Assembly (NCBI GenBank): GCA_964541085.1
Contig: CAZIPA010000006.1
Location: forward strand, 4,528 to 68,527
Length of the DNA stretch: 64,000 nucleotides
Source: an uncultured Oscillospiraceae bacterium
GTDB lineage: Bacteria; Bacillota; Clostridia; Oscillospirales; Butyricicoccaceae
Direction of reading: 5' to 3'
In this document: positions 331-17,169 of the stretch, piece by piece
Layout: every line of letters starts with the position of its first letter
How positions within the stretch are numbered: position 1 is the first letter of the stretch
Notes under the pieces: model-generated
Told to the model about the DNA's origin: nothing
Seen by the model: only the letters and a program-made list of their open reading frames with translations
Database searches by the model: none
Translations under genes and position numbers: made by a program

Positions 331-1446
331 TTATTCCCCCGCTTTCAGCCGCACCGGCAGCACAAGATAGGTATAGCGGTCGCCCTCCGCCGGGGTCATG
401 GTGGCGGGAGAAAGGGCGCTCTTCAGGCCGAGAACAAACTCCTCATCCTGACAGGCCCGCAGGGCGTCCAGCAGATATTTGTTGTTGAAGCCGATCTCCA
501 GCGTGGTGCCGCAGTCGGGAATGTCGATCTCGTCATAGCTGCGGCCCAGAGCGGTGACACAGCACAGCTTGAGCTTGCTGCCTTCAAAGGTGCAGCGCAC
601 GGGATTTTTCAGCCGCTCGGAAATAATCAGACTGACCCGCTCCACGGCAGAGATCAGCTGGCTGCGGTTGAGCTTCAGCTGAATGGGCTGCTCTGCGGGC
701 ACCGCTGCCCGCCAGTTGAGAAACTCACCCTCCAGCAGACGGGTGGTGATCCGGGTGCGGTCAAAGGCAAACAGAGCGTGCTTACGCTGGGGATAAATGG
801 TGCATACGGAGTCATCGGAATCGGGCAGGATCCGGGCGATCTCCTTCAGCGCCTCGCCGGGCACCACAAAGCGGAAGCTCTCCTCCTGAGCGCATTCGAT
901 CTCCTCCTGCCGCACGGCCAGACGGTAGCCGTCCACGCCCACCATGCGGAAAACACGGTCGGTGACCTCCATCAGCGAGCCTGTGATAATGGGCTTGTTT
1001 TCGTTGTCGCCCACGGCAAACAGCACGCCGGAAATCATTTCCCGCAGCAGTCCGGAGGACAGGCGGAAGCATTCGGAAGAGTTCACCTCCGGCATTTCCG
1101 GAAATTCCTCCGGGTCAGAGGCAATCAGCTGAAACTCCGATGCGCCGCCGCGAATGGTGGCCATCAGCCGGTCATCCACATCAATTTCCACGGTTTCCGC
1201 AGGAAGACGGCGTACAATGTCAAACAGGATCCGGGCATTCAGCACTACCCGTCCGTGACGGCGAATATCCGCGTCAATTTCCCGTTGAATGGAGGTTTTG
1301 TAGTTGAAGCCGCTGATGAGCACATTGCCCGCGCCGCTTTCCAGCAGCAGGCCCTCCATCACGGCAGAGGCACTTTTGACACCCACCGCATGACTGCAAA
1401 TGGAGACCGCTTCTGCAAGGGCGGATTTTTCACAGGTGAAACGCAT
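331..1446 (-). CDS. dnaN: DNA polymerase III beta sliding clamp
   Basis: 371 aa, the typical clamp length, with full-length resemblance ([15 protein letters not shown]...). AAAGGAG RBS. Directly downstream of dnaA. Confidence 0.93.
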
Positions 1447-1744
1447 ATGCAGCGCTCCTTTCTATCAAATTTGAAGAAATTCTTTTCGTAGTAGTCGTAG
1501 GGGCTGTGGTAAATTCGGAAAACGCCGGAAACGCCTGAAATGACGGTGCTTTTCCCGTCCACAGCCGCCTGTTGAAAAGGAAATGTTTTTTTCGACGGTT
1601 TTCACAGGCAAATGTTTTTAACAGTTTTAACAGAGTTTTCCACAGAAAACTGTGAAGTGAAGGATGTCATCCCTGTTTTTACAGGGGTTTTCTCCGGCTG
1701 GAGCCCTGTGAAAAGGGGCGATTTTGGCCGAAGTTTTGAACAGG
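1447..1744. promoter_or_regulatory. dnaA-dnaN intergenic region, putative oriC component (DnaA-box cluster)
   Basis: 298-bp non-coding gap with AT-richer tracts. One 8/9 DnaA box TTTTCCACA at 1636-1644 and weaker boxes (TGTGGTAAA at 1505-1513). Gene-strand polarity flips around dnaA. Confidence 0.4.
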
Positions 1745-3037
1745 TTACTGCTCCGTGATGTTTTTTTGCAGATCGGCCACTTTATTTTTCAAAAGCTCAT
1801 CCTCCTGCATGGCCGCCGTGAGCTTTTCCACGCCGTAAATCACAGAGGTGTGATGCTGGTTGAAGACCTTGCCGATCTCCGGATAGCTCATGCCGCCGAT
1901 CTCCCGCATGAGATAGCAGGCCACCTGCCGGGGAACCACGATCTCCTTGCTCCGGGCTTTGGAGGTGAGCCGGGACTGTTCAATGACAAAATAGTCCGCC
2001 ACTTCCTGCAGAATCATCTCCGGCGTGGGATGCAGACCGGGCTTTTCCTTGAAAATGTCCCGAATGGCCGTCTGGGCCAGCTCCATGTCAATGGGTTTGT
2101 TCATCAGCGTGTGAATGGCGGCGATTTTTTTCACCGCGCCCTCCAGCTCACGCACATTGTTGGTGATGTTCTCGGCAATGTAGGTGACCACCCGGGTGGG
2201 AATGGTGATGCCCATACCGGCGGCCTTGGCCTGAATCATGGCCATGCGGGTCTCCAGATCGGGACTCTGAATGTCCGCCATCAGACCGCTTTCAAACCGG
2301 GTGCGCAGACGGTCGTTCAGCGTGGCGATTTCCTTGGGCGGCCGGTCGGAGGTGAGCACGATCTGCTTGCCTGCCTGATACAGCGCCTCAAAGGTGTGGA
2401 AAAATTCCTCCTGCATCCGCACCTTGTTGGCGAGAAACTGTACATCGTCCATGAGCAGCAGGTCTACCTGCCGGTATTTCTGATAAAAATCCGCAAAGCC
2501 GGAGTTCAGCGCGGTCAGCAGATCGTTCATGAAATCCTCACTCTTGATGTAGAGAATGCGGAAGGTGGGATGGGTCTTGCGGATGTAGCCCGCAATGGCG
2601 AACAGCAGATGGGTCTTGCCCAGTCCGGAGCCGCCGTAAAGAAACAGCGGGTTGTACAGGGTGGCCGGCTGCTTTGCCACCGCCAGTGCCGCCGCGTGGG
2701 CAAACTGGTTGCTGCTGCCCACAATAAAGCGCTCAAAGGTGTAACCGGCGTAAACGCTGGTGTCGCTTTGCAGCCGCCAGCTGTCTGCCTCCGGGCCGAA
2801 GACATACAGAGGCCTGGTGGGTGCTTTCAAAAGATGAGAAATAATTTCCGAAACATTGTCGGTAAACTGGGCTGTCAGCGTCTCCTGAAACAGCTCGCTG
2901 GCCGCCTCGATGACAAAGCAGCCGTTTTGAATGGCGATGGGCCGGGCATCCTTGAACCAGGGATCCACGGTGATGGCTCCCAGCTCGTCCCGCAGCTGCC
3001 GCAGGGTTGCGTCCAGCAGGGCTTCGGGCGTATACAT
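1745..3037 (-). CDS. dnaA: Chromosomal replication initiator DnaA
   Basis: 430 aa. AAA+ Walker A GGSGLGKTHLL, Walker B LLLMDDVQF, C-terminal DNA-binding signature HTSVIYGVEK. GGAGG RBS. Confidence 0.95.
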   Translation of the reverse strand: MYTPEALLDATLRQLRDELGAITVDPWFKDARPIAIQNGCFVIEAASELFQETLTAQFTDNVSEIISHLLKAPTRPLYVFGPEADSWRLQSDTSVYAGYTFERFIVGSSNQFAHAAALAVAKQPATLYNPLFLYGGSGLGKTHLLFAIAGYIRKTHPTFRILYIKSEDFMNDLLTALNSGFADFYQKYRQVDLLLMDDVQFLANKVRMQEEFFHTFEALYQAGKQIVLTSDRPPKEIATLNDRLRTRFESGLMADIQSPDLETRMAMIQAKAAGMGITIPTRVVTYIAENITNNVRELEGAVKKIAAIHTLMNKPIDMELAQTAIRDIFKEKPGLHPTPEMILQEVADYFVIEQSRLTSKARSKEIVVPRQVACYLMREIGGMSYPEIGKVFNQHHTSVIYGVEKLTAAMQEDELLKNKVADLQKNITEQ

Positions 3038-3335
3038 GGCTGTGATTTCCTCCTTTTTTCTGTCTCTTTCCTTCTGGCTTTTTCCTCCGAAAATGAAAAA
3101 GCACGGCTGTCCGCGTCAGAAAAAAGCGCCCCCGCCCTCCGGTGCGTACATACCCTTCTCAGTATACCACACATATGATAAAAAGGAAAGTAAAAATTGC
3201 TGTGTTTTGCCCACGGATTTTCGCTCTGCGGGCCAAACAAAGACAGGGGAAGCTTTTCGCCGCCGGAACACTCTGTTGTTCCATTATAGCGCGTTTCCGT
3301 GCACAGAAAAAATGAAGCAGTTCACTTGACAGGTT

Positions 3336-3476
3336 CCCCGCAAAATCGAAGATTTTGCGGGGGCCACTTCAGATTTGACCGCCTCGGTCGCCCCGCTTCC
3401 GGGGCTTCCTGCGGCATGACGCCGCCACTCGGCGGCGGGGGCTTGCGCCTTTTTGCAAAATCGAAGATTTTGCGGG
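3336..3476 (+). repeat. Intergenic hairpin-cassette repeat, 'module B' copy 1
   Basis: Hairpins GCAAAATC-GAA-GATTTTGC (3340-3358, repeated at 3454-3472), GCCCCG-CTTC-CGGGGC (3390-3405) and CGCCGCC-ACTC-GGCGGCG (3420-3437). Homologous copies at 26636-26750 (inverted) and 34839-34958. Confidence 0.8.
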
Positions 3477-3543
3477 AAAGCAGAGCCGATATCATTGCGC
3501 AGCCTCTCTGCCGCCTCTCTTAAAAAATCCGCTAAAACCGCTG

Positions 3544-3552
3544 TGGTATCAT
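3544..3552 (+). promoter_or_regulatory. Candidate extended -10 promoter for the Ubl operon
   Basis: TGgTATCAT (TG-n-TATAAT-like) about 60 nt upstream of the Ubl start. No good -35. Weak call. Confidence 0.25.
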
Positions 3553-3614
3553 TATTTCACAAGCTCCCGCCGGGCACAGCCAGACGGAGAAAAAAAGAAA
3601 AGGAGATCATAAAA

Positions 3615-3932
3615 ATGACGAACCATCCTATCGACGGAGCCCTTGCCGCCAACGAAAAATCCTTTGAGATCGACCTCGTGAACAAGCAGACCGGCGCGAC
3701 CTATGCCCGGGCGAATGTCCTCGAAGACAACACCATGACGCAGATCCTTGGTGAGTATGCCGACGATATCGGCGTGAATCCCAAGAGCAGCAAACTCATT
3801 TTCGAAAACAAGCGCACCGGCGTGTCCACTTCCAATGCTGCCGAAACGGTTCAGGCCATGGGTCTGAAGCAGGGGGATGTGCTGGCAATTACGGATGACG
3901 GCGGTGTTGCGGCGGATGCTGCCGTAGTGTAA
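3615..3932 (+). CDS. Ubiquitin-like (beta-grasp) protein precursor with internal Gly-Gly
   Basis: 105 aa from ATG 3615 (AAAAGGAG RBS); the longer TTG ORF from 3453 runs through a repeat. Size and pattern fit one beta-grasp domain (KLIFENKRTG..QAMGLKQGDVLAITDDGG). G96-G97 (nt 3900-3905) is followed by the tail VAADAAVV. First gene of an E1/E2/JAB operon. Confidence 0.75.
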   Translation: MTNHPIDGALAANEKSFEIDLVNKQTGATYARANVLEDNTMTQILGEYADDIGVNPKSSKLIFENKRTGVSTSNAAETVQAMGLKQGDVLAITDDGGVAADAAVV

Positions 3933-3951
3933 GCGAAGGGGGTATGACCGG

Positions 3952-4377
3952 ATGGTGACGATCTGGATTCTGGTAGCCCTGTGTCTGGCCGCCTGCGGCG
4001 TCATCCTGATCTGTGCAACGGAAAAAGCGCCCCGGCGCCGCACTGTCAGACGGCCGCCTCCGCTCCCTCCCCGGGATCATCGGAACACAGCGCCGCCTCC
4101 GGTCGCTCGCCCCCAGACAGGCACATGCGGTGCCGCCCCCACAAGACCCCTGCCGCCCCGGCGTGTTTCAGCATCGGCAACCGTCAATGCAGCAGCAGGC
4201 ACCGTCCGGGCCGGCAGCGGCCCCCGTGGACTTCAGCCCCATCAGTTTCCCTGCTGTCCCATGGATAAATCGCGGAATGTTCCGGGAATGCAGCAGCTGA
4301 TCTTCTGGGACAGTGGGAAAAACTGCTATCGCTGTTCCCGTGGCCACCGGTTCCGGAGCAACGGAAGGCCGCTCTGA
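3952..4377 (+). CDS. Membrane-anchored Pro/Arg-rich protein with C-terminal Cys cluster
   Basis: 141 aa with a GAAGGGGG RBS. N-terminal TM helix (VTIWILVALCLAACGVILICA), a Pro/Arg-rich linker, and a C-terminal CC..CxxC..H cluster. Two other frames are also open here in this high-GC stretch, so the frame is uncertain. Confidence 0.5.
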   Translation: MVTIWILVALCLAACGVILICATEKAPRRRTVRRPPPLPPRDHRNTAPPPVARPQTGTCGAAPTRPLPPRRVSASATVNAAAGTVRAGSGPRGLQPHQFPCCPMDKSRNVPGMQQLIFWDSGKNCYRCSRGHRFRSNGRPL

Positions 4378-4403
4378 CAACACAAACGAAAGGATCGTGT
4401 CCT

Positions 4404-5675
4404 ATGTCCAAGGTTATTTACAACACATTAAAGCTGTCTGAATACCGGTCGCTGTTTCATGGAATGCGGGTGCTGGTAATCGGCGCAGGTGCGGTGGGCA
4501 CCCATCTTATGGAAAAGTTTGCGAAAATGGGTCTTTCCCCGGATGCGCTGGACTTTGACTTTTTCACGCTGGAAAACGCAGCAAAGCACAGCTGTCTGAT
4601 CCGCACGCCGGAGGATGCCAACCGGAACAAGGCGGAATGCGCCGCCGCCCGGGTACAGCCTCTTCTGGATGACGGCTGCTCCTCCAACGGGATCGACGGT
4701 GATCTTTGCAAAATCGGCCCCGAGGCGCTGGCAGATTATCGCTTTGTGGTGGTGGCTGTGGATAATTTCGATGCCAAGGTGCTGCTGGGCGAGCTGGTCC
4801 GGCAGCTTCCGGAGGAACGGCGGCCCATCGTCATCATGGACGGAACCTATGATGAGCTTGCCCAGAGCGTGATTCTCGATAACAACGACTTCTGTCTGCG
4901 CTGTCTGATCAGCGAAGACTGGATGCCCGACAGCAGCATCCGTACCTCCTGCTCCGGGCCGCAGGTGCGGCAGCGGAACGGTGCGGAGGAGATCGTCCGC
5001 ACCTCCAACCTTGCCAGCTCCATGGCCGCACAGCTCAGCGCAGAACAGCTCCGGGCCTGTGTGATCGGAAACGGCGATGTCATGAACCGCCGGCTGATCT
5101 ATACGGCCTATCCCCATCTGGAGCTGAGCTCCTCCCGGCCCCTGCGGAAGCGTGACTGCTCCGGCTGCGCGATCCATCCGCCCGCAGAGATCCAGTGGCT
5201 CCACGGCAGCGTTCTGGATATCACCCTGAAGGATGCCATGCAGCAGATTTCCGCCATTCTGGGCACGGAGGATTTCGAGCTCTCCGTCCATCAGCTGAAC
5301 TACCGGCGGGTATCCCACGCCCGCTTTATTGTGGATGATGTCTGTCATTCCTGCGGGAAACCCATCCCGGTGATGCGCCATGAGGGCCGCCTGTTTCTGA
5401 ACGATCTGCTGTGTACGGCCTGTGCCGCACAGGGAAAGCAGGCCCGTCAGGATGCCTCCTTTTCCCACGGAGAGGCGCTGGACGCCTTTGTGCCCGGCAG
5501 CCCGGAGGCGCTTCAGGAAATGACGCTCTACGATCTGGGCTATCCTCTCGGCGCACACCTTGCGGTGCTCCAGCGCAATCAGGCCCTGGACCTGCTGGAG
5601 CTGGGAAAAATCACGAAAACCGTGTTTGCATTGGACGGGGATGCCCGGAAGATGCATGAAATCCATAAGCTTTGA
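4404..5675 (+). CDS. E1-like Ubl-activating enzyme (ThiF/MoeB family)
   Basis: 423 aa. Rossmann VLVIGAGAVG (nt 4482-4499), DFDFFTLENAAKH, NKAECAA and VVAVDNFDAK match the E1 adenylation fold. Paired CxxC (CLRC, CSGC). Extra C-terminal CHSC...CTAC domain. Confidence 0.88.
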   Translation: MSKVIYNTLKLSEYRSLFHGMRVLVIGAGAVGTHLMEKFAKMGLSPDALDFDFFTLENAAKHSCLIRTPEDANRNKAECAAARVQPLLDDGCSSNGIDGDLCKIGPEALADYRFVVVAVDNFDAKVLLGELVRQLPEERRPIVIMDGTYDELAQSVILDNNDFCLRCLISEDWMPDSSIRTSCSGPQVRQRNGAEEIVRTSNLASSMAAQLSAEQLRACVIGNGDVMNRRLIYTAYPHLELSSSRPLRKRDCSGCAIHPPAEIQWLHGSVLDITLKDAMQQISAILGTEDFELSVHQLNYRRVSHARFIVDDVCHSCGKPIPVMRHEGRLFLNDLLCTACAAQGKQARQDASFSHGEALDAFVPGSPEALQEMTLYDLGYPLGAHLAVLQRNQALDLLELGKITKTVFALDGDARKMHEIHKL

Positions 5676-5690
5676 TAAGGAGGCTTTTCC

Positions 5691-6326
5691 ATGAGCGATT
5701 ATACTGCCAGCTATACCGATGAAAAGGGCCGTACCAAACAGGCCTCCCTGACCCCGGAGGACTCCATGCTGGCGCTGAAAAACGACTATGAAGAGGTTCT
5801 TCGGCGCTACAATCCCAAATATGTGACCATCCGCCGGATGCAGGCAAAGGCCGGTGAGGCGGCACACCTGCGGGTGACGGTCAACGCCCCTTCCCACTAT
5901 CTCACCGCCATCTCCGACACCGAGCCCAAGGCCTGTGACTCCATGGATGTGGATATCATCTGTTACATGGGCTATCCCCTCAAGCCGGTAAAAGCCTTCT
6001 ATGCCCCGGAGCATTATCTCGCATCCCCCAATGTGTTCCGCTCCGGGCTGGCCTGCATTGATACCTGGGTGCCCTTTACCAGCTCTCTGGTCTCGGTGGT
6101 GGACAAGCTGGTTCACGATATCATCCACGATCCCTGTGTCAGCCGGTATGACAGCGTGGCAAATCACGAAATGGTCCGGTGGCATAAGGACGGCGTTGCC
6201 GCGGGACGCTTTCCCACGCTTGCCCCCAGGCTGCTCAATGTCCCCCAGCAGACGGCGCTCCCGCCCCGCAGAGCACCCGGCAAGCCCGCTGCCGCACCTC
6301 CGTCCCTGCCCGCAAGACGCCGCTGA
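5691..6326 (+). CDS. E2-like Ubl-conjugating enzyme (UBC fold)
   Basis: 211 aa. UBC signature YMGYPLKPVKAFY..LASPNVFRSGLACIDTWVP: an HPN-like SPN motif with catalytic Cys122 at nt 6054-6056. AAGGAGG RBS. Pro/Ala-rich C-terminal tail. Confidence 0.85.
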   Translation: MSDYTASYTDEKGRTKQASLTPEDSMLALKNDYEEVLRRYNPKYVTIRRMQAKAGEAAHLRVTVNAPSHYLTAISDTEPKACDSMDVDIICYMGYPLKPVKAFYAPEHYLASPNVFRSGLACIDTWVPFTSSLVSVVDKLVHDIIHDPCVSRYDSVANHEMVRWHKDGVAAGRFPTLAPRLLNVPQQTALPPRRAPGKPAAAPPSLPARRR

Positions 6327-6347
6327 ACCGAAAGGAGCTGATCTTTT

Positions 6348-7238
6348 ATGACCAATCATGCGGTTCCCCTGCCCACCAGACGCCCGCCCCAGCCGAAAAC
6401 CTATCCCGTTTGCAGCCTGAAGAAGGTGATGGACATGATCCAGACCTCCTGCGGCAATGTTTCCATCAAAGAACGGCATGGCAGCGGCCGGGACAAGGTG
6501 ATCCTGCTTCCCGAGGCGGAGCAGGAGCTGACCACCATCGTCTCCTATGGCCGCCGCTCTCCCATGAATCGCTGCGAACAGAAGCTTGTTGGCATGGGAC
6601 ATTTCCTGCTGAACGACGACGGCGCCGTGATCGTCATCGTCAGCCATTTCATGGAGCTTCAGACCATGAACCGCAGCCCGGTCAGCGCCTCCGGTCTGGG
6701 CCCCAACGGCGAAAACAATCCCGGGCTGGATTTTCTGGAATATCATCGCACGGAGTTTCTCCGGGATGAGGCCAGATTCAACACCGATGCCTATGGCTGT
6801 CTGGTAGACCCATTTCTCAAGCTCTGCGGCCCCAGTGAGTTTGTGATGGATGCCCATACCCATCCGGATCTGGGGGTCTTTTACAGCCATGCTGACCGGG
6901 TGAACGGCGCGGCCCGTGCCGGTTCGTCTCCGGTGTGCATCCTTGTGTGCGATCCCATCCGGAAAAAGCTGCTGGGCAGCATCGGACGGGAGCTGGTGGA
7001 GGCAGAAATTCTGGTGTATTCCCGCAGTGCAGCTCCCCGGAAGGAGCGCAGCGGGGAGCCCTGCGAAGTGCCCTGCGGGGACAGCCGCCTGCTGCCGCCC
7101 ACGGACGAGCTTGTACAGCTGGCCGGTCAGTGTCTCCGCACCCGTGGCTTTTCCGGCAATGTCCGGCTCCGTTCCCGTCTGGACGGCAAATGCTGCCTGA
7201 ACATCCAGATGGTGATCCCCAAAAACAGAAAGGAGTAA
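6348..7238 (+). CDS. JAB/JAMM (MPN+) metallopeptidase, predicted Ubl-processing/deconjugating enzyme
   Basis: 296 aa. Complete JAMM motif: E77 (CEQKLVGMG) ... H170-T-H172-x7-S180-x2-D183 (HTHPDLGVFYSHAD, nt 6855-6896). AAAGGAG RBS. Confidence 0.88.
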   Translation: MTNHAVPLPTRRPPQPKTYPVCSLKKVMDMIQTSCGNVSIKERHGSGRDKVILLPEAEQELTTIVSYGRRSPMNRCEQKLVGMGHFLLNDDGAVIVIVSHFMELQTMNRSPVSASGLGPNGENNPGLDFLEYHRTEFLRDEARFNTDAYGCLVDPFLKLCGPSEFVMDAHTHPDLGVFYSHADRVNGAARAGSSPVCILVCDPIRKKLLGSIGRELVEAEILVYSRSAAPRKERSGEPCEVPCGDSRLLPPTDELVQLAGQCLRTRGFSGNVRLRSRLDGKCCLNIQMVIPKNRKE

Positions 7239-7243
7239 CGCGC

Positions 7244-8224
7244 ATGGCAAACCCTCCGGAAAAACTGGGCTCCGTGTACTACAGGAGCTTTCTCTCCCAC
7301 CAGGGGCAGATTTTTTATGACCGCCTTCAGGCCCAGCTTCTCCGGGGGGATTTTTCGGGCAAAACCGACTTTTCCCTGTGCGATCCCGAAACGGCGGCCT
7401 CCGACGGCTTTGCCGCCTACAAAGCCCTCCGGGACGATCATCCGGAGCACTTTTTTCTGGGAACCCAGAGCGAGTTTACCCGCCGGGGCCTGAGCGGCAC
7501 GCTGACCTATACGATGCTGTATACCCCGGAGATCATCGCACGGGTCCGGCAGCAGCTGCGAAAGACCATCTGCCAGCTTGTGCGCGGCACCGCGGAGCTG
7601 TCCATGCTTCAGCGGGAGGCGCTGGTTTATGAGCGCATCGCAAAGCGCATGACCTACACCAACCATGCGGATGTGCGTGACCACAACATCGTGGGGCCTG
7701 TGCTGAACGCCGAGGGTGTGTGCGAGGGGCAGAACGCGCTGCTGCTGCTGTGCTTCCGGCGGATCGGCATTCCCTGCGTCAAGGTGTACGGCAAAGCCAA
7801 CCCGGACGGCTGGCACTGCTGGACGGTGGCGTGGCCCGACGGAGACCCCGTTCACTGTGATGTGACCTGGGACGGCGCAAAGGGCGGCGTTGTAGGCTTT
7901 CATTATTTCAATCTCCCGGACCGGCAGATCGGGGAAAATCACTTCGCCTTTCAGGGAGAGCGTGTTCCCGTCTGCACTGCGGAAAATCTCACCTATTATC
8001 AGCTGCACGGCCTTTGCGTCCGTTCCCACGCAGAGCTCCGGGCACGGCTGAAGCGGGATTTTCAGCGGGGCGTAATGCCCATCCGGATTCAGTTTCTGTA
8101 CAGTCCCGCCTCCGGCAGCTATCGGGAGGAGGTCAAAAGTGCCCTTTCCGCAGAAAACCTCTATAGCAGCCGCAGACTGTACTGTTATCCCCGCTTAAAA
8201 AACATGGTAATCACCACCGTGTAA
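7244..8224 (+). CDS. Transglutaminase-like cysteine protease-fold protein
   Basis: 326 aa from ATG 7244, 5 nt after the JAB stop, with an AGGAG RBS. Transglutaminase-core Cys-His-Asp: GVCEGQN (C160), GWHCW (H191), HCDVTWD (D206). Confidence 0.82.
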   Translation: MANPPEKLGSVYYRSFLSHQGQIFYDRLQAQLLRGDFSGKTDFSLCDPETAASDGFAAYKALRDDHPEHFFLGTQSEFTRRGLSGTLTYTMLYTPEIIARVRQQLRKTICQLVRGTAELSMLQREALVYERIAKRMTYTNHADVRDHNIVGPVLNAEGVCEGQNALLLLCFRRIGIPCVKVYGKANPDGWHCWTVAWPDGDPVHCDVTWDGAKGGVVGFHYFNLPDRQIGENHFAFQGERVPVCTAENLTYYQLHGLCVRSHAELRARLKRDFQRGVMPIRIQFLYSPASGSYREEVKSALSAENLYSSRRLYCYPRLKNMVITTV

Positions 8225-8248
8225 AATCAAGACAAAGGAGTTGATGCT

Positions 8249-9337
8249 ATGTATCAATCGGTGATCAGAGACCCCGGCGGCGACGGACTGATCCGTGTTC
8301 TGCCGGATGCCTGGGGACAAAACCCCATTGTAAACGGGAGTCTGCTGCTGGTGCCCCCCGGCACGGTGGCGCTGGTGAACATCAACGGCCTGCTGTCCCG
8401 GCCCTATGGCCCCGGCAGATATGAGCTTTTCACCGGCGTGGATCCCTTCTTTGTGCGGCTCCGGAATCTTCTTACCCGTGGAGACCCCGGAACGACCGTA
8501 TCCGTCTTTTTCATTTCCACCGAAAAGACGGTGTTTCTCCGTCTCGGCACGGGTGAGTTCCCCTTCCGGGAGCATCGTTTTCAGCTGACCATGAAGGCCC
8601 TTGCCGCCTGCTGCCTTTCCTTCTCCGTGTCGGATCCCCGGACGCTGCTGGAAAAGCTGGTGGGAAGCTACCGCTCGTCCTTTTCTCAGGAGGATCTGGA
8701 GCCCTGCATCGAGCAGCTGATGCTGGCACCCGTCCGGGAAGCCGTTTCCGAAGCCATTGGCAGGCTGGATATCACGGCCTTCAACAGCCATCTTTCTCAC
8801 ATCGCAAGGCTGTCCACGGCAGCGATCCGCACCCGCCTGTCGGATTACGGCATCCGGCTGGAGCGGTTTGATCTTACAGCGATCAACATTCCCGACGGGG
8901 AAATGCAGCGGCTCTATCGTCTGGAGCAGTCGTTTGCCGAAGGGAAGACCCGCACCGATCTGGAGCTGGATCATCTGCAACGGGTCTGGCAGGGAAGCAC
9001 CGACCGCCGCACCATGAGCGAAATGATGACCGGGCTTCCTTCCCGTGGACAGGCTCCCGCCGGCGGAAACGCAGGGGGCATGGCGCCCATGATGATGCAG
9101 ATGATGATGCTTTCCCAGCTGCTTCCGGCTCTGCGGGAACCCCTTTCCGAAATGACCCGGCACACGGATCTGTTTGGCGGCAGCCCTTCCGGCCCGCAGG
9201 AAAGCACCTCCTCTGCCAACGCCCCTCCGCCCATGCCCGCCAGACACCGGCGCTGCCCCTCCTGCAACGGAGCTGTGGCACGCAGTGCCGTTCTCTGCCC
9301 CATCTGCGGCTATCCTCTGAATGAAAGGAATGACTGA
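8249..9337 (+). CDS. SPFH/band-7-like protein with C-terminal zinc ribbon (COG4260-like)
   Basis: 362 aa. The N-terminal ~250 aa resemble the stomatin/prohibitin-like 'virion core protein' family. Met/Gly-rich linker. C-terminal CPSC-x13-CPIC zinc ribbon. Confidence 0.7.
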   Translation: MYQSVIRDPGGDGLIRVLPDAWGQNPIVNGSLLLVPPGTVALVNINGLLSRPYGPGRYELFTGVDPFFVRLRNLLTRGDPGTTVSVFFISTEKTVFLRLGTGEFPFREHRFQLTMKALAACCLSFSVSDPRTLLEKLVGSYRSSFSQEDLEPCIEQLMLAPVREAVSEAIGRLDITAFNSHLSHIARLSTAAIRTRLSDYGIRLERFDLTAINIPDGEMQRLYRLEQSFAEGKTRTDLELDHLQRVWQGSTDRRTMSEMMTGLPSRGQAPAGGNAGGMAPMMMQMMMLSQLLPALREPLSEMTRHTDLFGGSPSGPQESTSSANAPPPMPARHRRCPSCNGAVARSAVLCPICGYPLNERND

Positions 9338-9338
9338 A

Positions 9339-9872
9339 ATGCAGTACAGAAATACTTCCTGGATCCCCATCCTTGCGGCCATCGTGATGATCCCCCAGCT
9401 GCTGTTCTGGTGGCTTGCGCCCGGCGCTGCCGCCGCCCGTCTCGCAGTGTACATCGGGGGAAGCCTTCTGACGCTGGCCATCCCCCTTTGCTGGCTTCTG
9501 ACCTGCTGGAACAGCAATCTCCGCAAAACGGCGGGGCTTTCTCTGGTGGCCGGGGTGCTGGAGCTGGCAGTGGTCGTGCTCTCCGCCGTTCTGCTGGCCA
9601 TCAATGTCACCGTCCGTTCTGCCGTATTTGCCCTTCTGATTATGGCGCTGGTGTGTCTGATTCTGCTGCTTCCGCTGATCTGCGCCGCCCTGAAGCAGCC
9701 TCGGCAGGGTGTCTATTCTGCCACCATCGCCGGAGAGCCAGGCCGTCCGCAGCCGCGCATCCGTGAGGCTGCTCCAGCGCCCGCACCGGTCTGCCGGCAG
9801 CAGACTGCCGTGACGGAGCCTGCGCCCCGCACGCCCACCGTCAGCAAGCCTCTGCCGCCCCGAAACCGATAA
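9339..9872 (+). CDS. Polytopic membrane protein (about 4 TM) with Pro-rich tail
   Basis: 177 aa from ATG 9339 (GAAAGGA RBS, 1 nt after the SPFH stop; an alternative ATG at 9321 overlaps it). Four hydrophobic helices, then a Pro/Ala-rich C-terminus. Confidence 0.7.
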   Translation: MQYRNTSWIPILAAIVMIPQLLFWWLAPGAAAARLAVYIGGSLLTLAIPLCWLLTCWNSNLRKTAGLSLVAGVLELAVVVLSAVLLAINVTVRSAVFALLIMALVCLILLLPLICAALKQPRQGVYSATIAGEPGRPQPRIREAAPAPAPVCRQQTAVTEPAPRTPTVSKPLPPRNR

Positions 9873-9901
9873 TCCGGCTCTGACAGAAAGGCGGTGATGC
9901 T

Positions 9902-10531
9902 ATGGATCGCGTTTGCAGCCGCTGCGGCGGCTCCAGCTTTCATTACAATCGCAGCCGCATGAGAATGGAATGCGATATCTGCGGCACGCCGGTTTCCGAT
10001 CCCCAGCGGGAACAGCAGCTGATGCAGTTTGACCGGGCCTGTTCTCAGGCGATGGAGCATCTGACTGCCGGAAACTGGGAGATGGCCCTTCAGCTTTTAC
10101 AGCCGCTGCTGCATCAGCATCCCACGGAAAAACGGCTGTATCTTGCGGTGCTGCGGGCGGCCACGAAGGATTTTACCGACATTGCCATGGCAAACGCGGC
10201 AAACCGGCACATTGCCTCGGAAGCCTGGGACAGGCTGGTACGGCTGAACGGTGTCACCGGGGCCATGATCCGGTATGGCAGACAGCGCTATGCTCTGCAC
10301 CGGGGAGAGCTTCTGCGCCAGCGCAGGAAGCTTCTGGCATGGATCTTTGCGGCGGCGCTCTGCTCGCTTCTGGCCGGTATTTTTCTGGAGACAGAGCACG
10401 GCTTTCTGGCGGTGCTGTGTGTGGGCGGTCTTTTTGGCTGCCTGTACCAATTCTCCCGCAGCCAGCCCATCCCTGTGATTCGGCATCTGCTGTGTGCCGT
10501 GCCCGGCGATCAGCACAATCCTTTTCTTTAA
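9902..10531 (+). CDS. Zinc-ribbon protein with helical repeat region and C-terminal TM hairpin
   Basis: 209 aa. N-terminal CSRC-x14-CDIC zinc ribbon, a TPR-like helical segment (AMEHLTAGNWEMALQLLQPLL), and two C-terminal TM helices. Confidence 0.7.
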   Translation: MDRVCSRCGGSSFHYNRSRMRMECDICGTPVSDPQREQQLMQFDRACSQAMEHLTAGNWEMALQLLQPLLHQHPTEKRLYLAVLRAATKDFTDIAMANAANRHIASEAWDRLVRLNGVTGAMIRYGRQRYALHRGELLRQRRKLLAWIFAAALCSLLAGIFLETEHGFLAVLCVGGLFGCLYQFSRSQPIPVIRHLLCAVPGDQHNPFL

Positions 10532-10543
10532 GGGGGTCTTTTC

Positions 10544-13087
10544 ATGAAGAAGTTTTATGATGGCGGAGAATGCTTTGTGCTGACGGCCTGCTCCATTGAG
10601 GCCGCACCCCTTGCAAGCAGCCAGCAGGTGGGCATCAACCTTGCGAAAACCCTCTGTGAGGATGCCTGCTATCTCTCCGCAGAGGGAAACGGGCAGACGG
10701 CACTGGAGCTTTTCCGCATTGCCGGAAAAACCCCCGGCAGTCCCATCCGGCATATTCTGACGATCCGTACCCATGACCGCTCGGAGCGGGATTGTGTGAT
10801 CCGGCAGGAGGCGCTGGAAAGGGGCATTCTGTCCCTGCTGCACCAGTCGGGCTACCGTATCCGTGAACTGCCCTTTGATGACTACCGGAGACAGCTTGCA
10901 CAGCTGGACACTGCCGCTGTCTGGGCGCTGAAAAAGCAGGAGGTGCAGGAATATGGCGTGCAGAACACCTATCGCTCTCCCGCAAGAGTGGAGGAGGTTC
11001 ACTGGGAAGGCATCTATTCCGCGCTGGCCGGCTCCGGCTGCGCCCTGTGCGTGCAGATCATTCCCGCTCTGCTGTCGGAGAACGAACGGCAGCGCATCGC
11101 AAAAAACACCGCCCATTGCTCTCAGGCAGTGGACGGTGTGGTGACAAATCTGCGGGACGGACTGGCTGCCGCCGCTGCGGAACGGTGGAAATACTATGCC
11201 CAGAATGCCTCCCGCCCCTTTGCAGAGGTGAATCTTCTGGTGATCGGCTCCGTTCCCGCCAGCGCCCTGACGGCGGCCCGGCTGAAGCAGTCGGTGCGGG
11301 AAGCCGCCCTGCAAACACTTCCCGTCCCGGATTTTGGCAGCTACACCGTCTACAATCAGCCCTGGCGGCTTGCCCGTGCTTTGCGCTCCGCCGACACCGG
11401 CAGTCTGGATCGGTGGACCTCTGAGGAGGCCGCCCAGATCTTTCAGCTGCCGGTGCAGGGCCATTTTTTCACCGGGCTGGAGGGAAACCCCTTCTCTCTG
11501 ATTCCCGAGCTGGAGCTTTTGCCGGAACAGCTGACCTGCGGCGGCGTGCCGGGGATCGTTCTGGGACGCTCTGTTTTTTCCGCCCGGCAGGTGGGGCTTC
11601 CGCCGGAACAGCTGCTGCTCCATACCGCAGTGATGGGAAAATCCGGCACCGGAAAGACGACGCTCCTGAAGCAGCTGATCGCACAGCTGCGGCGGCAGGG
11701 CATTCCGGTGCTGATTCTGGAGCCGGTGAAGCGGGAATACCGGGATCTGATTGCCGGACTGCCGGGCAGCAAAATCTTTACCGTGGAGCGCCCGGTGACG
11801 CCGCTGCTGATCAACCCCTTTTATGTCCCGAAGGGTGTGCCGCTGGGAGAATACAGAAGCTGTCTGCTGTCTGCCTTCAAGGCTGCCTTTTCCCTGCCCG
11901 ATCCGCTGCCGGCCCTGTTTGAAAAGGCCATCTCCGAGGCTTATACCCTGCACGGCTGGACGGACAGCAGCAGCAGCACCGATCCCGATGTCACCCTTTT
12001 TGACATGGCGGATTTTGTGCGTGTCTTCAAACGCATCATCGCCCGTTCTGGCTACAGCAATGAGGTCAAGGGCAACATGATGTCCGGCGGTGCCTTCCGG
12101 CTGCAAAGCCTGCTCGACCGCTGTCCCCGCACCTTTGATACCATCCATTCCACCGCTGTGGAGGAGCTGCTCTCCGGCTGCGCCGTTCTGGAAATGGGAA
12201 ACCTGGAGCCGGAACAGAAGGCGCTGGTTTCCGCCCTGACCCTCATCAGCATCCTGGCCTGGCTGAAGGCGACCAGAAAAAGTGAGCACCGTCTGAAAAA
12301 CATTCTTCTCATCGACGAGGCCCATGCCCTGCTGGATCAGGGAGAAGGGGCAACCATGGAGGAAAAGGCACTGAACAGCACCATGACCCAGCTGATGATC
12401 AATGTGATCACGGAGATTCGGGCCTATGGAGTGGGGGTCATTTTTTCCGTTCAGTCTCCCTCCCGGGTGGGCGGACGGCTGCTGGACAATGTGGACAACC
12501 TGCTCTCCTTCCGGCTCAGCGGCGAAGAGGCGGAAATGCTCCGGGCGCACATCGGCGCGGACGACAGTCTCTGCACGGTGCTTCCGCTGCTGTCTGCCGG
12601 TGAGCTGCTGGTGAAAAACCGCTTTCTCCGGTCTCCGCTGCCGGTCAGAATGAATGATCCCGCCGGGCTCTCCCGGACAGACCCCGTTTCCGATGAGGCC
12701 ATTGTCCGGGCGCAGACGGGCTATCTGGCGGCCCACGCCGGGGATTATTGTCCCTTTGCCCTCTGCAGGGCTGCCGGGTGCCGCTGCTGCTCCGTTTCCG
12801 TCCGGGAAGAGGCAAAGCTGTTTGCGGAGCAGCTGTTTGCCCAGCGGCAGCACAAGCTGCGCACGCCGGAGGAAGTTGCCGCACACCTGCTGCGTCTCCC
12901 GGCGGCGCTGGCCTCCCGTATTTCCCAGAGTGACAAAGGCGTTTTTCAGAAGCTTTGCGGCTGCACGGCGGTCCATCTCCTGCGGAAATGTGCCCTGGAG
13001 GGGGGCGTTTCCCTTGGCCAACAGGCCGCCGCAGCGCTGCTGACCGAAATGTATCAACAGAAAAAGGAGGAATCTGGCAATGAATGA
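10544..13087 (+). CDS. HerA/FtsK-type (DUF87-like) P-loop ATPase with large unknown N-terminal domain
   Basis: 847 aa. Walker A VMGKSGTGKTTLL followed by PVLILEPVKREY (HerA-like), Walker B NILLIDEAHALL, VIFSVQSP sensor region. Cys-rich C-terminus. AAGGGGG RBS. Confidence 0.82.
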   Translation: MKKFYDGGECFVLTACSIEAAPLASSQQVGINLAKTLCEDACYLSAEGNGQTALELFRIAGKTPGSPIRHILTIRTHDRSERDCVIRQEALERGILSLLHQSGYRIRELPFDDYRRQLAQLDTAAVWALKKQEVQEYGVQNTYRSPARVEEVHWEGIYSALAGSGCALCVQIIPALLSENERQRIAKNTAHCSQAVDGVVTNLRDGLAAAAAERWKYYAQNASRPFAEVNLLVIGSVPASALTAARLKQSVREAALQTLPVPDFGSYTVYNQPWRLARALRSADTGSLDRWTSEEAAQIFQLPVQGHFFTGLEGNPFSLIPELELLPEQLTCGGVPGIVLGRSVFSARQVGLPPEQLLLHTAVMGKSGTGKTTLLKQLIAQLRRQGIPVLILEPVKREYRDLIAGLPGSKIFTVERPVTPLLINPFYVPKGVPLGEYRSCLLSAFKAAFSLPDPLPALFEKAISEAYTLHGWTDSSSSTDPDVTLFDMADFVRVFKRIIARSGYSNEVKGNMMSGGAFRLQSLLDRCPRTFDTIHSTAVEELLSGCAVLEMGNLEPEQKALVSALTLISILAWLKATRKSEHRLKNILLIDEAHALLDQGEGATMEEKALNSTMTQLMINVITEIRAYGVGVIFSVQSPSRVGGRLLDNVDNLLSFRLSGEEAEMLRAHIGADDSLCTVLPLLSAGELLVKNRFLRSPLPVRMNDPAGLSRTDPVSDEAIVRAQTGYLAAHAGDYCPFALCRAAGCRCCSVSVREEAKLFAEQLFAQRQHKLRTPEEVAAHLLRLPAALASRISQSDKGVFQKLCGCTAVHLLRKCALEGGVSLGQQAAAALLTEMYQQKKEESGNE

Positions 13088-13733
13088 ACTGGAAACCATG
13101 GATCTGGACACCGCTGCGGAGGAGGACTTTGACCTTCCCGATGCCGACAGCTGGGCAGAGCTGGACACACCGGAGCCGGAGGACTGCGCCGGGGATATCC
13201 CGGACACACCGGAGCTGCTGTCTGATGGGGAAAAAGCTGCCGATTATGCCCGCTCCTTCGGCTTTGACCGGGCTGCGGACTATATCCAGCGGCATTATGA
13301 CGGGGACGAATACACCCCCGGCGATCCCATCCGCATTTCCACCCGCAACATGGGGCTGGAGGGTCTTGCTGCGGAAAACGGCGTTCCCTTTGAGCGGCGG
13401 ACGGCCCAGCTTGCCGAAGGTCTGTCGGTGGAGGGGGTCTTTCCCGCCTTTGACAGCCGCCATCATGTGGAGCTGGGCGATGCCGCGAAGGATATGAGCC
13501 TTCACCAGCAGTTCAGCGCCTGCAGGGAAGATTTTCAGGATCATATGTATGATTCCCCCGAAAAGCTGGCGGACATCACCTTCGGCGCGATGGAGCGGAT
13601 GGACGCACCCCAGGGCTATACGCCGGAGGGCTTCACCTGGCAGCACAATCCCGAAACCGGCAGCTTTGATCTGGTATCCAAAGACGCTCATTCCGTCGGG
13701 CACACCGGCGGGAACGCTTTGTGGGGGAAATAG
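13080..13733 (+). CDS. Acidic-N-terminus protein with HNH/EndoVII (WHH-like) nuclease motif
   Basis: 217 aa. The start overlaps the ATPase stop by 8 nt. The first ~50 aa are strongly acidic. The C-terminal GFTWQHNPETGSFDLVSKDAHSVGHTGG (nt 13638-13712) resembles the WHH/AHH-type toxin nuclease pattern W-x-H..LV...H...H-T-G-G. Confidence 0.6.
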   Translation: MNELETMDLDTAAEEDFDLPDADSWAELDTPEPEDCAGDIPDTPELLSDGEKAADYARSFGFDRAADYIQRHYDGDEYTPGDPIRISTRNMGLEGLAAENGVPFERRTAQLAEGLSVEGVFPAFDSRHHVELGDAAKDMSLHQQFSACREDFQDHMYDSPEKLADITFGAMERMDAPQGYTPEGFTWQHNPETGSFDLVSKDAHSVGHTGGNALWGK

Positions 13734-13999
13734 TGCGCCGCAGGCGCTGTATGCCTTCTCAGGCGGCCCCCCCACAAACGCAAAGCACCCCTGGGAGACC
13801 CCAGAGGTGCTTTGTCCAATACAGTGAACGGACAACCGGATGTGTTTAAGGAGTTCTTTATGAAAAAAGCGTTTTGCTTTTCCCTGTGTGTCTATAATAT
13901 ATCAAACCCGCAGGCATCTGTCAAGATGAAATCTGAAAATCGTGATGTTGCACAAAATACACAGGTTCCGATTGTGCAGTATGCTCAATGGGCACACGG

Positions 14000-16209: not shown

Positions 16210-16617
16210 TCAAAGCGCTCCTTTTGCGTCGCGGTAATACTCCAGACTTTTCCGCAGGAATTCCTCCGGCACGGAAAAATAGTCCGCCAGCTCGTCGGGT
16301 CGGGTGAGGCCACGGCGCAGCGCACTTTTCAGCTCCCGCAGCGGCACCAGCCGCCGGATGGCCCAGCGGTCGGCCTTTTGTTCACAGCGGGCCCGCTGGA
16401 TCCGGCTGCTGTCCATGGTATAAAAGCTGCCGGTGGCACAATGCCCCATTTCATGTGCCAGACAGACCAGCTCCTCCGCACCGGTTTTCAGCTTGGAGAC
16501 ATCCATCCCGATATACCCGTCCGGGGTGGAAATGGCGGTGCTGCTCCGCAGCGGAAAGCAGAAAACCTGAAGTCCCAGACGGTCCGCCGTCTGATACAGG
16601 TCCTGCAGGCGGGTCAT
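16210..16617 (-). CDS. ImmA/IrrE-family zinc metallopeptidase
   Basis: 135 aa with an HEMGH zinc motif (CLAHEMGHC). The start overlaps the stop of the upstream XRE gene (ATGA). Confidence 0.85.
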   Translation of the reverse strand: MTRLQDLYQTADRLGLQVFCFPLRSSTAISTPDGYIGMDVSKLKTGAEELVCLAHEMGHCATGSFYTMDSSRIQRARCEQKADRWAIRRLVPLRELKSALRRGLTRPDELADYFSVPEEFLRKSLEYYRDAKGAL

Positions 16618-16940
16618 TCGTTCTGCCTCTTTTCCCGCAGCGCCCGCTTGAAGCGGACAAAATCCAGCACATCCTGCTTGTCCTCCTCCGTGAGCTGCCG
16701 CACCTCGCCAAAGAGGGCAAACTCCAGGGGAGAGGTCTCCTGCTGCCGATCCTCAAAAAAGTAATTGGCCTCCACATTCAGGACGGTGCAGAGCCGCTGG
16801 ATGGTCTTTGCGTCCGGTTGATTCTGTCCCTTCTCCCAGTTGCTGACGGAATTGTGCTTTGCACCTACCGCCTCGGCCAGCTCCTTCTGTGTCAGCTGAC
16901 AGCTTTTCCGGGCATGACGCAGCTTTTCTCCAAATTCCAT
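16614..16940 (-). CDS. XRE-family helix-turn-helix transcriptional regulator
   Basis: 108 aa. Classic Cro/C1 HTH (LTQKELAEAVGAKHNSVSNWEKGQNQP). AAAGGAG RBS. Confidence 0.9.
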   Translation of the reverse strand: MEFGEKLRHARKSCQLTQKELAEAVGAKHNSVSNWEKGQNQPDAKTIQRLCTVLNVEANYFFEDRQQETSPLEFALFGEVRQLTEEDKQDVLDFVRFKRALREKRQNE

Positions 16941-17133: not shown

Positions 17134-17169
17134 TTGTGTCCGATAAACAGGACAGAAAGGACGGTAGCT

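Follow-up and report, generated by a model that had tools for sequence, protein, structure and literature searches.

Bacterial systems that conjugate ubiquitin-like proteins (Ubls), namely type II CBASS (anti-phage systems that signal through cyclic oligonucleotides), Bil, Bub and 6A-MBL, were only recently demonstrated to function in immunity, and they are relevant to how eukaryotic ubiquitin signaling arose. The operon classes 6A to 6E were reportedly defined by Burroughs et al. in 2011. Known families of bacterial Ubl-type operons are type II CBASS, Bil (6C), Bub (6E) and 6A-MBL (PMC11601596, PMC10557695, PMC13276650). Bil conjugates its Ubl to phage proteins (PMC11601596, PMC10557695). In type II CBASS of Bacillus cereus, Cap2 conjugates the cyclase via its C-terminal Ala331 (..KPGGFA); the cyclase is joined to PspA in membrane fractions that also hold YdjI, and Cap3 releases it (PMC11153139). 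YdjI is an SPFH protein with a Zn finger and no transmembrane (TM) segment; the adjacent YdjG and YdjH recruit it to the membrane, where it organizes PspA (PMC8581546). Here we describe an eleven-gene operon at positions 3615-13733 of a 64,000-nucleotide stretch (the window) of contig CAZIPA010000006.1, from an uncultured Oscillospiraceae bacterium. Its products comprise a complete Ubl-conjugation cassette, membrane proteins, a transglutaminase-fold enzyme, an ATPase and a DNase. We class the system as a bacterial Ubl-conjugation conflict system distinct from Bil, Bub and CBASS, with several features that are unprecedented. The locus is probably a member of a conserved multi-module conflict system of gut Bacillota (Clostridia), serving anti-phage or anti-mobile-element defense. 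The genes are as follows (aa, amino acids).

3615-3932, plus strand: gene 1, Ubl beta-grasp protein, 105 aa (family-profile matches)
3952-4377, plus strand: gene 2, TM and Zn-ribbon-like protein, 141 aa (conservation, TM scan)
4404-5675, plus strand: gene 3, E1-like adenylating enzyme, 423 aa (Pfam ThiF 9.4e-15, above cut-off)
5691-6326, plus strand: gene 4, E2 (UBC-fold) enzyme, 211 aa (AlphaFold and Foldseek)
6348-7238, plus strand: gene 5, JAB/JAMM (MPN+) metalloisopeptidase, 296 aa (Foldseek and JAMM residues)
7244-8224, plus strand: gene 6, transglutaminase-fold Cys-His-Asp enzyme, 326 aa (PF01841, Transglut_core)
8249-9337, plus strand: gene 7, SPFH (Band_7_1) scaffold, 362 aa (Band_7_1 4.2e-15, Zn_ribbon_3 1.8e-4)
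9339-9872, plus strand: gene 8, polytopic membrane protein, 177 aa (hydropathy scan, about four TM helices)
9902-10531, plus strand: gene 9, Zn-ribbon and TM-hairpin protein, 209 aa (conservation, TM scan)
10544-13087, plus strand: gene 10, HerA-family P-loop ATPase, 847 aa (profile matches)
13080-13733, plus strand: gene 11, WHH-type HNH/EndoVII DNase, 217 aa (Colicin-DNase 9.6e-12, WHH 5.4e-8)

All eleven genes start with ATG, with starts chosen on sequence and homologue support, and each is preceded by an AGGAG- or GGAG-like Shine-Dalgarno site. The intergenic gaps are 19, 26, 15, 21, 5, 24, 1, 29, 12 and -8 nucleotides (nt), and a consensus scan found no strong plus-strand terminator inside the operon. 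The tight packing (gaps of 1-29 nt and one 8-nt overlap), the ribosome-binding sites and the missing internal terminator are thus as described in the original prediction, which a model had made from the DNA letters alone. Weak matches to the terminator consensus, counted on both strands, are in modest excess (17, compared to 10.3 +/- 3.0 expected from shuffled sequence). Because all eleven products have conserved homologues, encoded in the same order in other genomes, chance open reading frames (ORFs) are excluded.

The Ubl, a single-domain E1 (Cys183), a UBC-fold E2 (Cys122) and a JAMM isopeptidase make up a complete thioester-competent conjugation cassette, and the catalytic residues that adenylation, the two transfers of the thioester and metallo-isopeptidase activity require are all conserved. 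The E1 consists of one ThiF domain and a C-terminal domain with a second Zn site. When its family profile was compared to solved structures, Cap2 was the best match (9e-8), with further matches to UBA3, TcdA, Uba1 and SAE2; the E1-E2 models of PADLOC matched it weakly (2.4e-7). Invariant across 26 homologues are the GxGxxG motif (G27/G29/G32), D120, the cysteines C164/C167/C252/C255, the crossover-loop C183 and the second C4 site in the C-terminal domain (C314/C317/C337/C340).

For the E2, no sequence-level match was found in Pfam, PADLOC, NCBIfam or PDB sequences. An AlphaFold model from 36 family members (predicted local distance difference test score, pLDDT, 89.8) was used for a Foldseek search, and the top 50 PDB matches were all canonical ubiquitin/SUMO E2s (probability 1.0, TM-score (target) up to 0.65). 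Within the motif LASPNVF..G.AC(122)ID.W, S112-P113-N114 and Cys122 are invariant in 36 sequences, and distant relatives have HPN, HIN or HVN before the Cys. The C-terminal tail carries the motifs ALPPRR and PPSLPARRR. For JAB, sequence-profile support is weak (Pfam Prok-JAB 0.003, below cut-off), and the family profile matched nothing meaningful among PDB chains. The predicted structure (pLDDT 75) matched BRCC36, Rpn8/Rpn11, CSN5/6, the MPN domain of Npl4 and the JAB domain of BubCD in Foldseek, and E56/E77, H170, H172, S180 and D183 are invariant. The JAB N-terminus carries a PLPTRR motif. Catalytic motifs had led the original prediction to call these products E1, E2 and JAB. The calls stand, on the ThiF match (9.4e-15), Zn cysteines and Cys183 for the first, on the canonical UBC fold and invariant Cys122 motif for the second, and on the MPN fold and invariant JAMM motif (H170/H172/S180/D183) for the third.

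In a distant relative, a 640-aa E1-E2 fusion is encoded alongside Ubl, gene 2 and JAB genes (L047 1348-3270). Two giant proteins contain 13 (P0397, 3954 aa) and 5 (P0426, 6218 aa) stretches that match the E2 family profile.

The profile of the Ubl, built from 28 homologues, matched the Ddi1 UBL domain (5e-4), SUMO-1 (0.02-0.1) and the NPL4 UBL domain (UN_NPL4, 0.032), supporting a predicted beta-grasp Ubl domain in the gene 1 product. A GG pair near the C-terminus had been put forward as a Ubl signature. The pair is present in the window's copy (..DDGGVAADAAVV), which ends ..DDGGVA followed by a six-residue tail, ADAAVV, but it is incidental, as the conserved terminus in relatives is Val-Ala. 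In approximately 30 homologues the stop codon directly follows this Val-Ala (after ..DNAGVA, ..DNCGVA, ..DDGEVA or ..DDRNVA), and the two preceding residues vary within the family (AG, CG, GG, GE, GR, RN). The main family therefore lacks the C-terminal Gly-Gly or terminal Gly through which Ubl modifiers are activated, and a distant clade terminates in ..GNG or ..VAAG. Four loci encode in-frame, head-to-tail di-Ubls with the junction ..GVA/AD.. (L008 2582-3157, L009 7659-8237, L012 7656-8237, L021 3134-3724), and four tandem, diverging Ubl genes, two with altered C-termini, are found at another (L014 5022-6521). Since the family stops at Val-Ala, and both the window's tail and the di-Ubl junctions follow Val-Ala, the residue that is activated is probably the Ala at the terminus, or Gly in the distant clade, after proteolysis has exposed it; the Ala331 terminus of the CBASS cyclase is an experimental precedent (PMC11153139). 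The ADAAVV tail of the window's Ubl presumably must be removed.

In one relative, an additional ORF in the position of gene 8 encodes a diverged Ubl domain and an unknown C-terminal domain of about 150 aa (L011 14286-14963).

Compared to Bil, the operon likewise has separate Ubl, E2, JAB and E1 genes, a predicted thioester cascade and no CD-NTase. However, BilD is a multidomain E1 (IAD-AAD-CYS), whereas the E1 described here is a 423-aa protein with a single ThiF domain and a crossover-loop Cys. The E2 of Bil, BilB, is of a diverged 'CEHH' type, in contrast to an E2 with a canonical-like SPN...C motif whose best matches are eukaryotic E2s; the Bil Ubl ends in Gly instead of Val-Ala. Finally, Bil has four genes as opposed to eleven, which here include core genes for a TM Zn-ribbon protein and a transglutaminase-fold enzyme, as well as SPFH/membrane and ATPase-effector modules. 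Identity with Bil, as defined in PMC11601596, was rejected on these grounds (E1 domains, E2 motif, Ubl terminus and additional genes). No PADLOC model matched the Ubl, E2 or JAB, with PADLOC coverage of Bil being unconfirmed.

Several features are shared with type II CBASS. Cap2 is the best solved relative of the E1 profile, the CBASS cyclase terminus (..GGFA, Ala331) resembles that of the Ubl (..GGVA) in that a Gly-rich stretch and then a hydrophobic residue lead up to a small one, and a JAB enzyme reverses conjugation in CBASS, where the B. cereus partner is PspA at the YdjI (SPFH) membrane complex (PMC11153139). In contrast to CBASS, the operon has no CD-NTase or cyclic-nucleotide effector, the protein predicted to be conjugated is a dedicated Ubl and not the cyclase, E1 and E2 are encoded separately (with a fusion only in the distant relative L047), and the SPFH module lies inside the operon. 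With no nucleotidyltransferase domain in any product and no fused Cap2, the locus is not a type II CBASS; domain scans of the products agree with the original prediction that CD-NTase is absent and that E1 and E2 are separate. Bub operons also combine Ubl, E1, E2 and JAB genes, have diverse Ubls that include multi-beta-grasp forms, and use JAB to trim the precursor (PMC11601596); BubCD is also among the fold matches of JAB. Unlike the E1 and E2 of Bub, which lack catalytic cysteines and form oxyesters, both enzymes have invariant catalytic cysteines here. None of the 11 products is a DUF6527 serine protease, in place of which there is a transglutaminase-fold cysteine enzyme, and the operon does not have the Ubl-E2 and JAB-E1 fusions that characterize Bub. 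Identity with Bub was rejected on the presence of the cysteines and the lack of a DUF6527 match.

The products gave no system-level match in PADLOC-DB v2 or NCBIfam (June 2026), and full-text literature searches turned up no account of an operon in which Ubl, E1, E2 and JAB genes have transglutaminase, SPFH or HerA-HNH partners, the Burroughs 2011 classes lying outside this comparison. The original prediction had not recognized the architecture from any described system, and PADLOC, NCBIfam and the searched literature gave the same answer. Being neither Bil, Bub nor CBASS, and having no database or literature match, the system is therefore classed separately among the bacterial Ubl-conjugation conflict systems. 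To these it would add an E2 of canonical appearance (SPN/HPN...Cys) together with a compact E1, both from Gram-positive gut anaerobes, gene fusions like those of polyubiquitin with a non-glycine (Val-Ala) Ubl terminus, and two unprecedented partners, the membrane Zn-ribbon protein and the transglutaminase-fold enzyme. It would also add a hard-wired link to an SPFH membrane scaffold, and interchangeable motor and degradative-enzyme effectors. Through this family, the Cap2-PspA-YdjI observation in CBASS becomes a testable genetic association, and cultured hosts are on offer (strain DFI.6.37 and Ruminococcus sp. 5_1_39BFAA).

The first of the new partners, gene 2, encodes a protein whose N-terminal TM helix is joined by a Pro-rich linker, containing two PLPPR motifs, to a C-terminal Cys/His domain (FPCCP..CYRCSRGH). 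The protein is conserved in 22+ loci, with C102, C128 and H132 invariant, and is a candidate membrane anchor or adaptor, perhaps E3-like, of the conjugation core. In the public record of the same species, gene 2 is not annotated as a gene (L044 2529-3001). The second partner, gene 6, matched Transglut_core above cut-off (3.2e-6; 27.8 bits compared to a cut-off of 23) and has an invariant C160, H191, D206 triad, so the transglutaminase fold called in the original prediction was correct. The protein aligns over nearly its full length with PDB entry 9crn (1.9e-12), for which a literature search found no description. The enzyme may act as a second peptidase or isopeptidase, or else as an acyl-transferase or thioester-forming, E3-like transferase.

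The cassette is joined invariably to the membrane-anchored Zn-ribbon protein, almost always to the transglutaminase-fold enzyme, and usually to a YdjI-like SPFH protein with its partners. Four products of the operon are membrane-bound or membrane-recruited. Gene 7 encodes an SPFH protein that lacks a TM segment and has a low-complexity region rich in Pro and Met as well as a Zn ribbon at its C-terminus. The gene 8 protein ends in a tail, KPLPPRNR, and 15 ORFs at the same position elsewhere are its homologues. The gene 9 protein has an N-terminal C4 Zn ribbon (C5, C8, C24 and C27 invariant), a helical, TPR-like middle and a C-terminal TM hairpin. Genes 7 and 9 co-occur in about 20 loci. The Band_7_1 and Zn_ribbon_3 matches and the TM segments bear out the SPFH/Zn-ribbon and membrane-protein calls of the original prediction. 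In architecture, the module resembles PspA-YdjGHI (SamGHI) of Bacillus subtilis, in which an SPFH protein without a TM segment but with a Zn finger at its C-terminus is likewise encoded beside two membrane proteins. Unlike that locus, the operon has no pspA, the gene order is different, and the module is embedded in a Ubl operon.

A short motif, LPxR[RHKNQ] (typically PPLPPR or ALPPRR; LPxRR hereafter), recurs in five products. It is found at the C-terminus of E2, usually in two copies (33/35 homologues), in the linker of the gene 2 protein (17/25), at the N-terminus of JAB (19/35), at the C-terminus of the gene 8 protein (12/15), and ahead of the Zn ribbon of the SPFH protein (8/22). E2 proteins have 7.9 copies per 1000 aa, compared to 0.3 in background ORFs of the same loci, and distant E2 relatives retain LPxxxR-type tails. 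The motif was not found in the Ubl, gene 9, HerA, HNH or ClpP proteins, and is rare (one or two matches) in E1 and the transglutaminase. That core enzymes and the SPFH/membrane module have the motif in common argues against mere adjacency. Since it persists in loci without a transglutaminase or SPFH gene, its receptor is likely a core protein; our guess is the E1.

The HerA-family ATPase encoded by gene 10 matched DUF87 and HerA_C above cut-offs, PADLOC models mad8 (2.7e-17) and HerA (6e-14), and, among PDB profiles, HerA 4d2i (1.5e-8) and several HerA proteins of defense complexes. Its Walker A motif, GKSGTGKT, is conserved, and G365, K366, G368, K371, T373, D591 and E592 are invariant. The motor is flanked by an N-terminal region of about 340 aa that is specific to the family and by a C-terminal domain rich in Cys. 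The family comprises about 110 clusters, all of about 847 aa, and identity stops abruptly at 46%. The most divergent member, at 46% identity, still lies within a full system, and the next relatives (32%, <27%) are found elsewhere; the family thus appears restricted to the Ubl system. The DNase encoded by gene 11, which overlaps gene 10 by 8 nt, has an acidic, variable N-terminal region and invariant W187, H189, H204 and H208. These matches (HerA 4d2i 1.5e-8, WHH 5.4e-8) and the invariant motifs confirm the HerA and WHH assignments of the original prediction. Like Sir2-HerA, DUF4297-HerA and HerA-NurA, the ATPase adjoins, and is translationally coupled to, a degradative effector. It differs from those pairs in that the effector is a WHH/HNH DNase, the ATPase has its own N-terminus (about 340 aa) and Cys-rich C-terminus, and the pair is found only within the Ubl system.

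On several contigs of the window's species, the HerA gene is split into 763-aa and 71-aa ORFs (L055 3057-5599). This suggests natural inactivation of the effector motor in some strains. In neither the window nor relatives is the nuclease followed by a conserved immunity gene. A small conserved ORF of 68-97 aa (..RDNKTERM..GN.DLKG..VTAKKK.YVPE..) does lie between the HNH and ClpP genes of some relatives (L011-L014, L036; for instance L013 18241-18498). We rejected it as an immunity gene, as it belongs with the ClpP module and is missing from the window and from L039.

The E2 family is compact and of limited size: a word-indexed search placed it at 143 clusters at 90% identity, and an exhaustive scan of 1.84 billion cluster representatives gave only 87 at E <= 1e-3. 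In a scan of one genome per species, the system was found in 32 of 185,579 species. All are Bacillota, of the families Lachnospiraceae, Oscillospiraceae, Butyricicoccaceae, Anaerovoracaceae and Erysipelotrichaceae, and the distribution is patchy, spanning several families and varied genomic contexts. Synteny was determined by tblastn of the eleven products against the 32 species-level genome loci, out of about 40 loci overall. Genes 1-5 were found wherever the contig permits in the 32 genome loci. Of 31 informative loci, 26 contain gene 6, which the most distant relatives have as well; genes 7 and 9 occur in about 20 loci, and genes 10 and 11 in 11 of the 32 genome loci, plus two more from other collections. 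The deeply conserved core order is Ubl, Zn-ribbon membrane protein, E1, E2, JAB and transglutaminase, usually followed by the SPFH protein and the second Zn-ribbon membrane protein. Even very distant E2 relatives (E ~1e-5 to 1e-19; one with a true HPN) keep the Ubl, gene 2, E1, E2, JAB and transglutaminase in that order; of their contigs, L048 extends to the SPFH and Zn-ribbon proteins and L051 ends before them. Genes 6-11 therefore co-occur with genes 1-5 in many genomes; a complete lack of such synteny would have refuted the original prediction.

What follows the core varies. About half of related loci have ClpP and ring-ATPase modules. One alternative module consists of ClpP, an AAA-like protein, a TraG/VirD4-like ATPase and a 260-aa protein that matches the C-terminus of PDC-S68, a PADLOC candidate; relatives also have a second TraG-like module upstream. 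Elsewhere, Endonuclease_NS_2 and a TrwB-like ATPase directly follow JAB, or PP2C, a Ser/Thr kinase and a TPR protein are present, and a further alternative is a STAND-like NTPase of 1168 aa. The window has no ClpP or TraG module. Genes 1-6, mostly with 7 and 9, are the conserved core, HerA plus HNH is one of several swappable modules, and the system is often larger than the window's eleven genes. A conserved core with swappable motor and degradative-enzyme modules is the pattern of prokaryotic conflict systems.

Just 5' of the Ubl gene in one relative (L043 5078-7561) are one or two genes for SprT-like (HExxH) metalloproteases and a gene for a YbjN/type III secretion chaperone-like protein with an acidic tail. 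Equivalents occur in L011, L012, L014, L009 and L037, and none in the window.

Taken together, we favor, with reasonable but far from full confidence, an immune or conflict role in which Ubl conjugation controls or cooperates with the effector modules. The original proposal that Ubl conjugation may be coupled to a membrane scaffold and an ATPase-nuclease is in essence upheld: synteny and domain content agree with it, with the correction that HerA plus HNH is only one of several modules. Several observations weigh against the favored role. Immunity, conjugation and its targets are all things that we infer. The HerA-HNH module is missing from about two thirds of related loci, making its coupling to the Ubl core optional rather than obligatory, and PADLOC and NCBIfam do not recognize the system. 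Among the genes that flank related loci are Cas1e/Cas2e, MzaA, mad3 and a number of PDC candidates, but no baseline was computed for this modest signal, so the support from defense flanks is weak. No flanking direct repeats or att sites of >= 11 nt were found around the island. When JGI metagenomes were searched for exact matches to the dnaA-proximal junction, no empty site was returned, and all contigs of the species with an identical neighboring htrA (HtrA) carry the island. Because every htrA-bearing contig of the species does so, neither an empty site nor mobility is demonstrated.

The strongest alternative is a housekeeping pathway of membrane stress and proteostasis. Ubl tags attached at an SPFH (YdjI/HflK-like) platform would consign membrane or cytosolic proteins to ring ATPases (HerA, TraG-like) and ClpP, which would extract or degrade them, and JAB would play the part of Rpn11. 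This would fit the match of the JAB model to MPN proteins (Rpn8/Rpn11, CSN, Npl4), the ClpP and ring-ATPase modules in about half of the loci, and the fact that SPFH proteins regulate membrane proteases and PspA (PMC8581546). However, the window has a DNase in place of ClpP, some strains of the species have a disrupted HerA gene, and neither a rare, patchy distribution nor modules that vary between nucleases, a kinase and a STAND protein would be expected of a housekeeping function; we consider this pathway unlikely. It is less probable still that an independent HerA-HNH pair and an SPFH module merely sit beside a Ubl operon, for example in a defense island. HerA plus effector pairs do act as stand-alone systems elsewhere, modules are shuffled among loci, and the HerA-HNH pair is limited to 11 of 32 genome loci. 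Against such loose adjacency, the HerA family is confined to this context with identity falling sharply below 46%, the genes are 1-29 nt apart with no strong internal terminator, and LPxRR is common to core (E2, JAB, gene 2) and module (SPFH, gene 8) proteins. Furthermore, with very distant E2s the transglutaminase is kept in both contigs, and the SPFH and Zn-ribbon proteins in one of the two.

We give only a slim chance to export of a toxin, in which the HerA/FtsK-like ATPase and membrane proteins would secrete the WHH/colicin-type DNase and the Ubl would be a YukD-like accessory of a type VII secretion system. Although WHH/Colicin-DNase domains are typical of secreted polymorphic toxins, there is no conserved immunity gene 3' of the nuclease in the window or relatives, and domain scans detected no WXG100, LXG or signal sequences among the products. 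YukD-type Ubls accompany FtsK-like ATPases in ESAT-6 loci (PMC1779556), and the operon encodes three or four membrane proteins; the ATPase, though, resembles HerA of cytoplasmic defense complexes and not EssC. Furthermore, the nuclease is optional, whereas E1, E2 and JAB are invariant and yet not needed by type VII secretion. A conjugative or mobilizable element, with the TraG/VirD4-like and HerA/FtsK-like ATPases transferring DNA, is very improbable. The additional ATPases of related loci have T4SS-DNA_transf, TrwB_AAD_bind and TraG-D_C domains, and a PcfJ-like protein and a transposase are near some loci, but no relaxase, VirB4 or other type IV secretion genes were seen, and the window's copy has no TraG-like genes. 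Neither 72,556 plasmids nor 50,697 phage genomes contained a tblastn match to the E1, and IMG/VR has the system on a single contig. On the same evidence, phage or plasmid origin was rejected. In PHROGs there was no phage structural signature beyond a generic likeness of ClpP to head-maturation proteases.

For the favored conflict role, we propose the following mechanism. JAB, or the transglutaminase-fold enzyme, would trim the Ubl precursor (a tailed monomer here, di-Ubl elsewhere) to its C-terminal Val-Ala. E1 would adenylate this C-terminus, and the Ubl would pass from Cys183 to Cys122 of the E2. The LPxRR tails of E2, JAB, gene 2, SPFH and gene 8 proteins may collect the enzymes on a membrane platform formed by the SPFH protein and the products of genes 2, 8 and 9. 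There the Ubl could be conjugated reversibly to the platform, the effector or an invader protein, much as Bacillus Cap2 parks its cyclase on PspA. A membrane change triggered by infection might then shift the balance between conjugation and deconjugation, licensing the HerA-HNH motor-nuclease to degrade DNA. The recruitment of YdjI and the CBASS-PspA conjugates are precedents that make the membrane part of this mechanism plausible. If the system is one of defense, it enlarges the immune repertoire of abundant human and animal gut Clostridia.

A doubtful but broader possibility joins these elements into a membrane-organized ubiquitination machine, with an Ala-ended Ubl, poly-Ubl precursors and the transglutaminase as a HECT-like thioester E3 or transamidase. 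Tagging at an SPFH platform would direct substrates or complexes of an invader to HerA-HNH (for DNA) or to a TraG-like ATPase and ClpP (for protein). If true, this would be a prokaryotic counterpart of ubiquitin-directed segregase/proteasome logic that uses non-AAA+ motors.

The remaining features of the region are as follows.

13780-13814, plus strand: stem-loop 3' of gene 11 (-26 kcal/mol, z = -5.76, reached by 0/200 shuffles)
3340-3361 and 3455-3476: two copies of the 22-nt palindrome GCAAAATCGAAGATTTTGCGGG, both upstream of gene 1 and 115 nt apart

The stem-loop begins 47 nt past the last stop codon and has no clear U-tract; it is the probable 3' end of the transcript. A third copy of the palindrome, with 1 mismatch, is at 34843-34861, giving 3 copies in the window compared to 0 expected. 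The palindrome may be an operator or a hairpin, and its tie to the operon is uncertain. It is confined to contigs of the same species and is not in related loci, which rules it out as a conserved operator.

The G+C content of the operon, 0.606, is near that of the window (0.585). The operon is in the origin-proximal region, adjoined by the divergent dnaA-dnaN (331-3037, minus strand) with a spacer of 577 nt (3038-3614) between the dnaA side and gene 1. On the other side, a gene for an HtrA-like protease is convergent with the operon. About 2.5 kb past the operon's end is an HTH_3 (XRE) and Peptidase_M78 (ImmA/IrrE-like) pair (~16210-16940, minus strand), with htrA and a cupin gene in between. 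The pair is like CapH/CapP-type regulators or a remnant of a prophage or integrative and conjugative element, and a Mor-like gene lies near it at 17134-17475 on the plus strand.

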